Shown here one piece after another: positions 21,101 to 34,201 of a DNA stretch of 64,000 nt. Within the stretch, counting starts at the first letter, position 1. Each line of letters begins with the position of its first letter. This DNA comes from a virus, in IMG/VR virus record IMGVR_UViG_3300049736_000695, positions 14,400 through 78,399 of that record, one strand, 5' to 3'. The notes under the pieces are model-generated. The model ran no database searches and had not been told where the DNA came from. It saw only the letters and a program-made list of their open reading frames with translations. The translations under genes and the position numbers were made by a program.

Positions 21101-22111
21101 CTATAGCCCTGGAGTAACATAGTTGCCAATTACTGAACTGTTAAGGTTTTCTACATAACCAGGTTCTGCGTATGCTGCGCATACGACTTCATATTGTCTT
21201 AGATCCATTGTTTCATATTGATTATCAAAACTCATTACAGATGTATCCATAGTAATACCAGCTTTAGGGAACCCGCCCCATTCATCTAGATTACTATACC
21301 AAGTTGTAAAGTACTGCATGCTATTTGTCGCGCCACCGTAGAAATCGATAGTACGTAATGGATTCATTCTTTGTGGACAACCGTCAGAATCACCACCATC
21401 ATCTGCAATAAGTATCGTTGCATCAGTCTCAGGTAAATATGTAAGTGCTGCTGATGCTATTATCTTTAACCCTGGATCTAAATCAGGGTTTGACGACGCC
21501 GTTGAAATAACAACTTGACCTTCGCCTTCAAGTACAGTTTGCGCACCTAAGAAAAATCCAGTAGGATGTACAAATCTGCGATAAAGTTGTTCCCACGTAT
21601 TAAGTGATATAGGCGACTTAATCATTATTGACAGAATTTGGTATAATCTGCCATCAGTAAGAACAAATGCTTGCTCAGGCCCGATTGGATCAACTCCAAC
21701 TTTTAATATAGATTCCTTTGGATATACTACTTCTACATTTTCTTGAAAGAAAGCTCTAAAGAAACCGTCTGCAGAATAAAGAGAACCTTTTACTCTAAAG
21801 AAATTACCAAAGTTTCTAAGCGCTTCTCTTGGAAATGTAAATTGAGTGTGTGATATTCCTAATGCAAGTTCATCAAATACAAAGTCAAGTCTTTTTAATG
21901 TAGCATCTTGCAAATCTCTTATTGTATTTAATTCAGCAACAGCACCGCCAAAGTTATCATCTGAATCTAAAAATTCGTAATAACCTTCTAGAAACTGTAC
22001 TAGACTCGGATATGACTGCTGAAAATATTCAGGCAATGACTCTTGAACCAAGCTTTTTCTAAAGTTTGGATCGAACCTAAAATAATCTTTTTGCGTTTCG
22101 AAGGATGCCAT
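21101..22111 (-). CDS. Baseplate wedge subunit, short gp7-like
   Basis: LPEYF...YP.LVQFLEGYYEFL, FFRVKGS, YQILSI, FVHPTGF; follows gp6. Confidence 0.75.
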   Translation of the reverse strand: MASFETQKDYFRFDPNFRKSLVQESLPEYFQQSYPSLVQFLEGYYEFLDSDDNFGGAVAELNTIRDLQDATLKRLDFVFDELALGISHTQFTFPREALRNFGNFFRVKGSLYSADGFFRAFFQENVEVVYPKESILKVGVDPIGPEQAFVLTDGRLYQILSIMIKSPISLNTWEQLYRRFVHPTGFFLGAQTVLEGEGQVVISTASSNPDLDPGLKIIASAALTYLPETDATILIADDGGDSDGCPQRMNPLRTIDFYGGATNSMQYFTTWYSNLDEWGGFPKAGITMDTSVMSFDNQYETMDLRQYEVVCAAYAEPGYVENLNSSVIGNYVTPGL

Positions 22112-23955
22112 TAGATACTAACTTGTAGATTTGGTGTCTGTCTGTCAATCCTTGCAGTTACCGAAGATCGATCAGTATCAAGCGCGAGGATATAATTTCT
22201 AAGTGGTTCAATCTTTGCATCACTTTGAGGTGTTATGTTTACTTTTAAAAATGATTTGCCGCTAACAATTTGACTTGGCTCGAATCCAATAAATGTTACT
22301 TTACCGTTTGCTGGGTTATAAGAACCTAGGTTATCAAGTAGAACATTTCCTTGTAAGTCAAAAATTTGTAAAACATTTGAAGATAATTTATTTTTAATTT
22401 GGGCCGGCAATCCATTAAATTCAATAGTATCCGATTGAACTCTATGAAAAACATCATCAGGCGATGCAATAGGTACAGGAAAATTTAACACAAAATTATT
22501 AGAAGCATTAACAACAACATTTTGTCTCATTTGCACTTTGATATTAATATCGTTAGATAAAATAGATTTATCTAGAGCATCAATTTCTGTTGTAAGATTT
22601 GATTTTCGAAACACTTGACCAAAATCTCTAAGAAAACTATTAAAGTAGGTTTTTATAAAGCCCATAATTTGAGTTTCCATGGCGCCAAGCGTAGTTCCCG
22701 TGAGACCTGGATCAAATTGTACATCATCGTTTAATTCAAGGAAGACATAGACAGGATCTACAAATTCTGGTTTAATTGACATAACCGCAAGATTTGTAGT
22801 ATAGTTAGATACAATAGCATCTTTTACTGCCCGTTGTACTGAACTAGAAGTGCCACTAGTAAAGTTAATTGATATGAAAACTTTACCATAATCAATAGGC
22901 ACATTTTCGTCACCGCTCCATACGGATGCTGAAGAAACCTGAGGAAAGTTTGATTCAATCATTGCTTTGTAATCAAGAGAAGTGACAAGCCTTTGCTGAC
23001 CTGCATAAGCGATTGGTGCAAGCTGTCTAATAGATTCTATAGATTGTTTTTCAGCACCGCCACTTGATTCAGTGTTTGTTACAACACTTAAAGAATATTC
23101 AATACCACCAATTGTAATTCCACTTGTAGGTGTAAAGAGAGTACCGTTATTTGCTAATGGTCCCTTACATGAAAGATATTTTACTTCTACCTTTTCGCCG
23201 GGTTCAGGTGATTTGCCGAATGAAATGCCATCACCGAAGTTTAATTCATAAAATCCATTTGGAGATTCATGTAATGAAAAATGAGTAGTTGTTGCATCAA
23301 CATTAATTGCCTGACTTAGAGGAGTAAAAGTTACAAAGCTTGATGAACTTACTGACTCAAATACTTTTACATCTGCTGTAAGTGTATCAATCGTTTCATC
23401 AGGTATAATATAGATCTGTCTTTCTACTTTTTCTCCAACAAGAAACGTTTTAGTTTTTTCAATTCCTTCAGTTATAGAAATGTTTTCACTACCGGCTGCA
23501 TTTTTAAATATGTACAATCCTGTGCCATCATCACTAGCAATAATAGCTTCTCTAGTTCTAAACGTATATGTTACACCATCAATAGAACTTGTAAATTGTT
23601 TTCCTCTATTAATAGTTAATTTTGCAGGTCGACCAGATACACTTGATAAATTAATTGAAATATTAATAAGTGCATTTGCGGCAGTACGAGATCTCGTTTG
23701 ATATCCAAGCATTTGTGCGTGTGATACTACAGAACTTCTTAATTGTGCAGTCGTAAGAAAAGATTCATTCATTGCAAAGTTAGCAGTGAGACCATTAAGA
23801 TGTGTATTATATGCGAGGACATCAAGCACATTCGAAAGACCTGAAGCTTCAAAATCATAACTCGAAAATTCTGATTTACTTTTCAGATGACTTTTAAGAC
23901 TTTGCTTAATATTATTAAAATCTAGATCGGATGATTTTACTGTACTTGTTGCCAT
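22111..23955 (-). CDS. Baseplate wedge subunit gp6
   Basis: LDFNNIKQSLK, YDFEASGLS.LDVLAYNTH, ESFLTTAQLRSSVVSHA, YELNFGDG, QQRLVTSLDY, YGKVFIS. Confidence 0.93.
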   Translation of the reverse strand: MATSTVKSSDLDFNNIKQSLKSHLKSKSEFSSYDFEASGLSNVLDVLAYNTHLNGLTANFAMNESFLTTAQLRSSVVSHAQMLGYQTRSRTAANALINISINLSSVSGRPAKLTINRGKQFTSSIDGVTYTFRTREAIIASDDGTGLYIFKNAAGSENISITEGIEKTKTFLVGEKVERQIYIIPDETIDTLTADVKVFESVSSSSFVTFTPLSQAINVDATTTHFSLHESPNGFYELNFGDGISFGKSPEPGEKVEVKYLSCKGPLANNGTLFTPTSGITIGGIEYSLSVVTNTESSGGAEKQSIESIRQLAPIAYAGQQRLVTSLDYKAMIESNFPQVSSASVWSGDENVPIDYGKVFISINFTSGTSSSVQRAVKDAIVSNYTTNLAVMSIKPEFVDPVYVFLELNDDVQFDPGLTGTTLGAMETQIMGFIKTYFNSFLRDFGQVFRKSNLTTEIDALDKSILSNDINIKVQMRQNVVVNASNNFVLNFPVPIASPDDVFHRVQSDTIEFNGLPAQIKNKLSSNVLQIFDLQGNVLLDNLGSYNPANGKVTFIGFEPSQIVSGKSFLKVNITPQSDAKIEPLRNYILALDTDRSSVTARIDRQTPNLQVSI

Positions 23956-32918: not shown

Positions 32919-33509
32919 ATGAGTAACTTATTTGCAAAATTAGAATATGAAGCGTTTCGTGCTGGTGTTAATCCTCGTACAAAAGAGGCACAAGACTGGT
33001 TTCGGAAAAAAGCACAACAGATGCGAAGAGTAAATCGCAATGATTTGTTGCAAGATGAACAAGTGAAACTTGTGAATAGACAAAATCCTTTAATTGGATC
33101 TATGAATATGTTTTTCTATGATCCAAAACACAAGGAAACTCTGCCTTACTACGATAGATTTCCTTTAGCAATTATTGTGGGACCGGCAGAAAAAGGATTC
33201 TATGGTTTGAATCTACACTATTTGCCAAATGTATTAAGGGCTAAACTGCTTGATGCGCTACTTGATATTACAAATAATAATAAATACGATGAGTCTACTA
33301 GATTTCAAGTATCTTATAAATTATTACAAGCATCAAGCAAGATGAAATACTTCAAACCATGCTATAAGCATTATTTGACTGCACACGTAAAATCTAGACT
33401 TGCAAGAGTATCGGCTCCTGAATGGGAAATAGCAACATTCTTACCAACAGCTGATTTCGAAAAGTCATCTGCATCAAATGTATATACACAATCAAGGAAA
33501 GCAATATGA
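32919..33509 (+). CDS. DNA end protector gp2
   Basis: FFYDPKHKETLPYYDRFPL, GLNLHYLP, KHYL..HV.S, FLPT..F. Confidence 0.92.
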   Translation: MSNLFAKLEYEAFRAGVNPRTKEAQDWFRKKAQQMRRVNRNDLLQDEQVKLVNRQNPLIGSMNMFFYDPKHKETLPYYDRFPLAIIVGPAEKGFYGLNLHYLPNVLRAKLLDALLDITNNNKYDESTRFQVSYKLLQASSKMKYFKPCYKHYLTAHVKSRLARVSAPEWEIATFLPTADFEKSSASNVYTQSRKAI

Positions 33510-34201
33510 GTAGCATAGACCAAATTAAATCTCTTGCATCATCTAAACTCGGTTTTGCTCGAACCAACCAATTTTTAGTTGAGTTACCTACAAACTTTTC
33601 TGGTAGTGGTGGATTTCTTGGTTCACTTACTTCACTTCTTACAAGTGGTATCGGTCTTGGTTCTGGCGGTGGAGATCTTAACTTATTATGTTCATCAGCA
33701 ACATTGCCCGGTAAACAAATATTAACACATGAACGTCGTATTGGTATGGAGTTTCAAAAGGTTGCATATGGTTATGCCGTTGACGATGTAGCATTAACTT
33801 TCTATGCACTTAATGATTATGGCACACGAAAGTATTTTGATGAGTGGAGAAAATATACACTTAACGAAAATGGACATATTGCAGGTTATAAGAAAGATTA
33901 TGCAAAAGATGTAAAGATACATCAATTGCGCAAACCAATTAAGAATATCGGTACTTCGGCTGGACCGATTAAAATTAATATAGGACTAGGCGGTGGATCT
34001 GTTTATTCAGTAAGATTAAAAGATGCATTTCCTACAACAGTTCAGGCCGTTGAATTAAATAACGATATGGATGGACTTGTACAAATAAGTGTACAGTTAT
34101 CATATACAAATTGGGAAACAACGTCAAGCGGACAAGGCTGGATTCAAGCTACTGGTGGACTAACTGGTGGATTAGGCAGCTTGACTAATTTTTTATCATA
34201 G
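33506..34201 (+). CDS. Tail tube/baseplate junction protein (gp54/gp19-like)
   Basis: ARTNQFLV, CSSATLPG, LTFY, YFDEW, IHQL, LKDAFPT, VQLSY. Confidence 0.8.
   Translation: MSSIDQIKSLASSKLGFARTNQFLVELPTNFSGSGGFLGSLTSLLTSGIGLGSGGGDLNLLCSSATLPGKQILTHERRIGMEFQKVAYGYAVDDVALTFYALNDYGTRKYFDEWRKYTLNENGHIAGYKKDYAKDVKIHQLRKPIKNIGTSAGPIKINIGLGGGSVYSVRLKDAFPTTVQAVELNNDMDGLVQISVQLSYTNWETTSSGQGWIQATGGLTGGLGSLTNFLS

Follow-up and report, generated by a model that had tools for sequence, protein, structure and literature searches.

Two-way selection on an Asp-Ser tripeptide motif in the virion proteins of a clade of uncultured marine T4-like phages

Introduction

Why should one dipeptide be nearly missing from the inner baseplate proteins of a phage and abundant in the proteins encoded next to them? 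The question is raised by the right-hand 64 kb (hereafter the window) of a 78.4-kb viral contig, IMG/VR record IMGVR_UViG_3300049736_000695, from an uncultured marine T4-like myovirus. In the interval 22111–34201, which encodes inner baseplate, hub and tube-initiator proteins, the dipeptide Asp-Ser (DS) is scarce; the outer baseplate and fibre genes that adjoin this set on the same strand (10855–22111, with more upstream of the window) are rich in it. A first-pass annotation had attributed the shortage to avoidance in buried assembly interfaces, as would be produced by an enzyme that modifies any accessible DS before assembly. Here we report that the virion proteins of the clade to which this phage belongs are under two-way selection that is motif-specific, clade-specific and exerted at the protein level. 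Selection acts on the tripeptide D-S-(A/N/D/S/G) rather than on DS alone.

Results

DS is depleted from the inner baseplate proteins of the window

The interval 22111–34201 contains 11 open reading frames (ORFs), ten with a PHROG match and one, encoding 566 aa, without. With expected counts calculated from each protein's own composition, these ORFs held 3 DS dipeptides against 17.9 expected (Poisson P = 1.9e-5), and the comparison with the reversed dipeptide (DS 3 vs. SD 17) gave a binomial P of 0.0026. In a shuffle test of the same ORFs, none of 20,000 permutations gave three or fewer DS (minimum 5; z = −3.8), so that the depletion claimed in the first-pass annotation was significant against composition. 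DS was the lowest of all 400 dipeptides in this set, and control dipeptides were near expectation (SD 17/17.9, ES 18/17.3, DT 14/17.1). The earlier counts for the proteins that had been named, and for NrdJ (2 DS) and gp32 (0 DS), were all reproduced by a recount; the list itself had omitted the 566-aa ORF at 26407–28107, which carries 2 DS. Chance or a composition artefact was ruled out by the shuffles, by the SD, ES and DT controls and by the recurrence across the clade described below. Isomerisation of Asp as a chemical liability was also rejected, since DG, the stronger hot spot, was enriched (24 vs. 17.7) and DS is over-represented in the outer proteins, which are long-lived. After DS, the strongest deficit in the inner set was that of TD (6 vs. 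17.1, z = −2.9); this dipeptide stood at 0.75 of expectation clade-wide, and its deficit is probably not a separate signal.

The inner/outer contrast recurs in the clade and is absent from outgroups

A search anchored on gp6 retrieved 80 IMG/VR loci with 48–100% gp6 identity. Four longer relatives were also used, namely G001 (97.9 kb, fully syntenic), G006 (complete, 152.7 kb, with terminal repeats), G008 and G009 (gp6 43% identical). The T4-like phages C48C1, Melnitz, HTVC008M, S-PM2, T2 and Mosig served as outgroups for gp6. Comparison of the region with cultured phages by blastn gave no match, and no member of the clade was found among cultured phages; the hosts of cultured relatives are SAR11 and OM43, not Bacteroidota.

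gp6 of the 80 relatives contained 62 DS against 284 expected, and gp25 of 68 relatives contained 2 against 53.5, with 55 SD. Across the inner alignments (about 80 relatives), DS was the most depleted of 245 testable dipeptides, at 0.30 of expectation. It was lowest by alignment columns as well, with 57 distinct DS columns compared with 133 for SD and 128 for DT, indicating that new DS sites arise and are not retained. In contrast, DS reached 2–4 times expectation in three outer baseplate families of the relatives; over the outer families it was the most enriched dipeptide (2.79) and had the top occupancy per column among eight dipeptides compared. No bin between 100% and 43% gp6 identity lacked this inner/outer contrast, and the same pattern was found in G001, G006, G008 and G009.

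gp6 of the outgroups contained 2 (C48C1), 4 (Melnitz), 3 (HTVC008M), 4 (S-PM2), 2 (T2) and 6 (Mosig) DS, with 3–5 expected, and every one of these DS columns was non-DS in the clade. The equal depletion that the first-pass annotation had named as the sign of a mistaken reading was not seen in orthologs from T4-like phages without DS-rich fibres, all six outgroups being normal. Furthermore, a scan over all dipeptides for enrichment outside together with depletion inside gave delta-z values for DS of 16.0 (window phage) and 17.1 (G001). The best-scoring dipeptides of five outgroups reached 3–7.5, owing to fibre repeats and with no inner depletion, so that no dipeptide was both enriched outside and depleted inside in the outgroups scanned; in the four of them that allowed DS to be scored, it ranked 25th–75th.

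The selected unit is a tripeptide

The residue after DS divided the signal into two parts. DS followed by A, D, N, S, G or T was reduced to 0.14 of expectation in the inner proteins of the clade (34 observed, 250 expected), compared with 0.92 in the pooled inner proteins of the outgroups (29/31.4), and was raised to 5.53 in the outer proteins of the clade, compared with 0.93–1.18 in the outgroups. DS followed by any other residue was at 0.52 in the inner proteins of the clade and 0.57 in those of the outgroups, and at 0.65 and 0.86–1.25, respectively, in the outer proteins. Relative to the outgroups, the motif is therefore depleted inside and enriched outside, which is the pattern of dual selection. 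A general trait of T4-like baseplate proteins was accordingly rejected for DS followed by a small residue (outgroups 0.92) and accepted for DS followed by other residues (about 0.55 everywhere). The inner/outer ratios at position +1 were 0.10/9.6 for A, 0.15/7.1 for N, 0.03/6.8 for D, 0.02/4.4 for S and 0.39/4.1 for G; the non-motif residues I and L gave 1.35/0.56 and 1.08/0.24. The outer sites had a hydrophobic residue at position −1. Thr did not substitute for Ser, as DT was at 0.51–0.60 in the outer and 0.82–0.99 in the inner proteins and was neither enriched nor purged. In the inner set of the window, the only motif-type site left is the DSA of the 566-aa protein at 26407–28107. The inner DS that persist are mostly of the forms DSI, DSL and KDS. 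The proposal that DS is the sequon unit thus stood as far as the DS pattern is real, and gave way to D-S-(A/N/D/S/G) as the selected unit.

Could the pattern be a structural motif combined with inheritance, in which DS marks fibre-repeat corners or helix starts and the inner deficit is an ancestral accident or a by-product of composition? The 2082-aa fibre protein does contain a repeated module, phi-phi-D-S-A-Y-(I/V)-x-A, often paired nine residues apart within a 9–18-residue repeat, and in keeping with such an origin DS followed by other residues is already at about 0.55 in the inner proteins of all T4-like phages and conserved core proteins are DS-poor by inheritance. However, structure and inheritance leave unexplained a 6.6-fold, motif-specific inner loss that persists to 43% identity with SD, DT and ES normal. 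The excess of SD over DS columns in the inner alignments and the loss in the clade of every outgroup gp6 DS column also argue against this explanation. Moreover, the gp8-like protein, a globular and non-repetitive wedge protein, has DS at seven alignment columns, each conserved in at least 78% of 36 distinct sequences from the clade; their contexts vary, and at most of these columns the outgroups have no DS. No other phage scanned showed such a bipartition for any dipeptide. We therefore regard the structural and inherited explanation as improbable, since the results for outgroups and for the tripeptide fit it poorly.

Selection acts on the protein, not on the DNA

Because GAY-TCN spells GANTC, the CcrM/HinfI site, the dipeptide pattern could in principle be the shadow of selection on DNA, and the in-frame GANTC count does track the DS count. 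The site is not avoided overall (227 vs. 208 expected), however, and in the two other frames GANTC was neither enriched in the outer genes nor depleted in the inner genes. In the DS-rich genes, the serine codons of DS were TCN and AGY at 71:29, the same ratio as for all serines. The codon ratio and the out-of-frame counts ruled out selection on GANTC, which we give virtually no weight; selection acts on the protein, not on the DNA.

Gene content of the region

Family calls of the window proteins were taken from PHROGs, and Pfam was also used. The inner proteins belong to the inner baseplate, hub and tube-initiator families gp6, gp25, gp53, gp5, gp27, gp48 and gp54, together with gp2 and gp4, with PHROG matches at E 1e-22 to 1e-128 and the gene order of C48C1, HTVC008M, Melnitz and Mosig. 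On the minus strand, the gp6-like inner baseplate wedge protein (614 aa; 22111–23955; phrog_219, E 9e-128) has 33 Asp and 73 Ser and contains no DS and four SD, with 3.9 expected. It is followed by the gp25-like wedge subunit (148 aa; 23956–24402; phrog_261; no DS), the C-terminal spike part of gp5 (660 aa; 24424–26406; phrog_430), whose single DS (3.0 expected) lies in the context DSL, and the 566-aa protein between the gp5 parts (26407–28107), which has no PHROG or Pfam match and carries its two DS as DSA and DSY. Next come the N-terminal OB-domain protein of gp5 (294 aa; 28104–28988; N-terminal part of phrog_430), the gp27-like hub protein (445 aa; 28985–30322; phrog_350; 2.1 DS expected), the gp53-like wedge subunit (249 aa; 30325–31074; phrog_232) and the gp48-like tail-tube cap (426 aa; 31074–32354; phrog_230), all without DS. 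On the plus strand, 32314–34201 encodes the gp4-like head closure protein (198 aa; phrog_218), the gp2-like DNA end protector (196 aa; phrog_429) and a gp54/tube-like protein (231 aa; phrog_45), none of which contains DS.

The outer baseplate genes at 18476–21059 (minus strand; phrog_438, PF07880) encode the gp8-like protein (18476–19831; 451 aa, 9 DS vs. 2.8 expected) and a gp9/10-like protein (404 aa, 16 vs. 3.6). Two DS-dense fibre-module proteins are encoded at 10855–12709 (minus strand; 219 aa at 10855–11514, 13 DS vs. 3.0; 391 aa, 22 vs. 4.8), and between these loci, at 12917–18465 (minus strand), lie VrlC-like virion proteins of 525 and 1323 aa (phrog_358) that are near-neutral for DS (5 vs. 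2.7 and 7 vs. 7.2). A sugar-tailoring operon at 534–9183 (plus strand) is embedded among the fibre and outer baseplate genes, and a second transferase cluster lies at 44296–50752.

In G008 (concatenated coordinates 22278–26224), two DS-rich fibre-like proteins, of 891 and 423 aa (13 vs. 7.7 and 9 vs. 3.9), stand in the place of the 566-aa protein and the C-terminal part of gp5. The central spike region can thus carry exchangeable motif-bearing appendages.

Purged and spared proteins

The dividing line did not follow burial in assembly interfaces, as the first-pass annotation had supposed, because the solvent-exposed spike part of gp5 is DS-poor too and portal, capsid and sheath are not depleted. 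It is better described as running between proteins that must not be touched and outer appendages. Relatives retrieved with the sheath gene as anchor were poor in DS in TerL, the prohead protease, gp13 and a TerS-like protein, but not in capsid, portal, sheath or gp14. TerL, protease and gp13 likewise have no DS in C48C1 and P-SSM7 where covered (gp13 is cut off in the P-SSM7 locus), and the DS sites of portal and capsid are partly common to these two phages; conserved head and packaging proteins therefore carry no clade-specific signal. An extension of the depletion to TerL, TerS, protease and gp13 was dropped, as TerL, protease and gp13 are DS-free in the outgroups as well.

A gp14-like neck protein of a G001-type phage (L102:3828–5039) exceeds its C48C1 and P-SSM7 counterparts by about 100 aa and contains 8 DS against 2.8 expected, with one SD. 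Of these eight, seven have a motif-type context, which places the neck among the motif-bearing parts as well. A Ser-rich protein without a family (59826–61094, minus strand) has 6 DS against 2.7 in its window copy; in its G001 relatives (L100:12041–13786 and L101 about 3581–5338) the order is reversed, with 16–18 SD against about 6 expected and 2–3 DS.

A second DS-free run was noted at 46289–54773, where 18 consecutive ORFs contain no DS against about 10 expected and 9 SD (summed by hand). The counterpart genes of G001 have 3 against 8.6 (likewise a hand sum), and the transferases stand at 0.8–3.1 clade-wide; the run is not robust in G001 or across the clade and was rejected as a real signal. 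Among non-virion proteins, only those at 51419–51961, 53004–53672 (a PD-(D/E)XK exonuclease) and 53909–54475 stay DS-low clade-wide.

Candidate genes for a proposed factor that reads the motif

The operon at 534–9183 encodes a DegT aminotransferase, radical S-adenosylmethionine (SAM) proteins, a carbamoyltransferase, a methyltransferase-like protein and a GT8-like pair (7770–9183). A syntenic operon is present in Mosig (MT647606.1 55000–104999; L097 locus 5991–16306), convergent on fibre and baseplate genes, with nitroreductase-like, three radical SAM, DegT aminotransferase, carbamoyltransferase, methyltransferase and GT8-like genes. The GT8-like gene at 7770–8558 of the window has a single homolog among 50,697 cultured phage records, and this homolog is in Mosig (40% identical, tblastn). 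Since the DS distribution of Mosig is normal, the expectation that glycosylation genes predict the pattern failed. Conversely, the complete genome of G006 shows the DS pattern without the DegT and carbamoyltransferase genes. The operon carbamoyltransferase has 3 close IMG/VR relatives, and locus searches with 12917–14494 and 5144–6532 based on the pattern gave only 2–3 relatives. The DS pattern neither follows from the operon nor depends fully on it, and the operon was rejected as its determinant.

The cluster at 44296–50752 (minus strand) is clade-restricted; by Pfam, AlphaFold2 (AF2) models and fold matches it comprises a weakly sialyltransferase/MptE-like gene, a weakly GT-A-like gene, two GT25 genes, a sulfotransferase, a variable cassette and a GT8-like gene (49925–50752). 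GT25 (two copies), GT8-like and GT-A folds are thus all encoded in the window. The cluster genes have few or no homologs in cultured phages. The product of 49925–50752 (275 aa) had no Pfam match above threshold. Its AF2 model (mean predicted local distance difference test score, pLDDT, 86) matched the catalytic domain of UGGT by Foldseek (E 2e-10), followed by A64R, LgtC, XXYLT1 and glycogenin, and its D-A-D is invariant in an alignment of 29 homologs; by its predicted structure, it is a GT8-like enzyme of GT-A fold with a DxD motif. It has more than 270 IMG/VR relatives (59–96% identity among the best 80) and no tblastn match in the 50,697 cultured phage records, and its gene marks a large group of uncultured phages.

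The core genes 44296–47200 and 49925–50752 are kept in G001 and in complete G006. All five testable genomes with 49925–50752 show the inner/outer DS bipartition, and every pattern-positive genome tested has the cluster core, which is all but missing from cultured phages that do not show the pattern. The cluster therefore fits better than the fibre operon as the source of a motif reader, which is a lead, not a result.

Discussion

DS is both the dipeptide most purged from one set of proteins and the one most favoured in the neighbouring set, and this requires something that reads the motif. We propose that a factor specific to the clade recognises (hydrophobic)-Asp-Ser-(Ala/Asn/Asp/Ser/Gly) on phage proteins inside the infected cell, and that it is most likely a putative soluble phage glycosyltransferase that adds a sugar to Ser. 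Judged from the proteins and their alignments, we hold this to be somewhat more probable than its alternatives combined. On outer baseplate, neck and fibre proteins, recognition would be useful, and motif sites would be gained and kept. Hub, spike, inner wedge and tube-initiator proteins would assemble or work less well if recognised, and would lose motif-type sites as these appear. With a bulky residue next to it, DS would escape recognition and keep the baseline frequency of the family. A glycosyltransferase is the preferred chemistry because several putatively soluble transferases are restricted to the clade, and the trans-acting reader may be encoded in 44296–50752. The sequon model of the first-pass annotation is supported to this extent: the depletion mirrors the enrichment at position +1, is confined to the clade and acts on the protein, as a single motif reader would give. 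The model goes further in naming a glycan, as the reader may be a non-glycan enzyme or a binder.

Several observations weigh against this proposal. By Spearman correlation, the mirror image at position +1 was only −0.50 (P = 0.035). Much of the DS excess lies in the repeated fibre module and is possibly structural. The sequences within the clade are not independent, and portal, capsid and sheath are undepleted. Mosig has the operon and the GT8-like gene with a normal DS distribution, and C48C1 has a homolog of 44296–44976 without the DS pattern. Finally, the link between genes and pattern is confounded by phylogeny, as there is one clade with many clade-specific genes.

A reader of another kind might be a kinase, an acyl- or sulfotransferase, a hydroxylase that targets the Asp, or a binder such as a fibre chaperone or decoration protein, with inner proteins shunning the motif to escape mis-binding or mis-modification. 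The dual-selection data fit such readers equally and do not identify the chemistry. At conserved outer sites that have decayed, both residues were lost in 25, only Asp was left in 28 and only Ser in 3, so that Asp outlasts Ser. 2-Oxoglutarate-dependent (2OG) and Asp-hydroxylase genes are frequent in this phage group (PMC7029224), although they also occur in pattern-negative relatives such as Mosig, and the clade-restricted genes that can be classified are glycosyl- and sulfotransferases. The failure of Thr to replace Ser (DT 0.5–0.8) fits many Ser-directed enzymes equally. A reader of this other kind is unlikely in our estimate, if somewhat less so than the structural and inherited explanation.

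The glycosyltransferase proposal has parallels in known systems. In eukaryotic secretory proteins, dual selection on N-glycosylation sequons is an established signature (PMC5562741): as here, the motif is favoured where modification is tolerated or useful and nearly eliminated where it is harmful, and this is visible from sequence alone. In that system, the sequon N-X-S/T is used by oligosaccharyltransferase in the endoplasmic reticulum, and selection distinguishes exposed from buried residues. In contrast, the clade, which is known from sequences alone, uses D-S-small on cytoplasmic phage proteins and selection is between protein classes. The general protein O-glycosylation motif of Bacteroidota, D-(S/T)-(A/I/L/V/M/T) (PMC8550257, PMC12871550), likewise has Asp directly before the acceptor Ser and favours Ala next. 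Its Thr rule does not hold in the clade, where DT is neither enriched nor purged, and neither does its +1 rule: in the outer proteins A is at 9.6 times expectation and T marginal at 1.85 times, with I, L, V and M at 0–0.56, and in the inner proteins I (1.35) and L (1.08) are not purged and V is low (0.19), with N, D, S and G used instead. Moreover, the Bacteroidota system acts on exported proteins, unlike phage proteins assembled in the cytoplasm. Maf flagellin enzymes O-glycosylate Ser/Thr on an exported filament protein; 44296–44976 weakly resembles such nonulosonate transferases and CstII-type sialyltransferases, below any membership threshold (MptE-like PF01973, E 0.06; CstII-like fold, template modelling (TM) score 0.3–0.4).

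Virus-encoded transferases in virion glycosylation have been described for the mycobacteriophages Che8, Corndog and Myrna (Freeman et al., 2023, as cited in PMC12801897) and for chlorovirus PBCV-1, with its A64R (PDB 2p72), and other giant viruses (PMC4691112). In these systems, soluble glycosyltransferases encoded by the virus decorate exposed virion proteins, and the predicted fold of 49925–50752 matches A64R among GT-A enzymes. No three-residue sequon with purging from inner proteins was found for them in the literature searched, and for the clade, genome data are the only source. In pelagimyophages, a host recognition cluster with GT8 glycosyltransferases has been proposed to alter the O-chain of host lipopolysaccharide (LPS) (PMC7029224). 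The architecture is common to both, with a variable island after VrlC that holds fibres, glycosyltransferases and radical SAM genes, and only a subset of such phages has the DS pattern. No report of a virion motif bias in such phages was found in the literature searched, including PMC7029224.

Taken further, the proposal would mean that the clade runs its own cytoplasmic protein O-glycosylation with (hydrophobic)-D-S-(A/N/D/S/G) as sequon, a virion proteome re-coded around it and 44296–50752 as machinery. We offer this extended version, read from genomes, tentatively, as somewhat short of an even prospect. If it is true, this would be the first phage case of a whole virion proteome re-coded around a sequon, with sites added to all exposed appendages of the tail and eliminated from the inner baseplate, and D-S-A would be a minimal portable tag with an enzyme set. 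The LPS-type glycosyltransferases of pelagimyophage-like genomes would then be reassigned from alteration of the host surface to decoration of the virion, and motif purging, known from the eukaryotic secretory pathway, would offer a way to detect, from genomes alone, systems that modify proteins in uncultured viruses. Even with a reader other than a transferase, selection in both directions places a strong constraint, so far without explanation, on how phage proteins evolve. If the motif is a sequon, the virion surfaces of ocean-abundant phages that bear a glycan or another tag could be told, from sequence alone, from the proteins that have to be kept bare.

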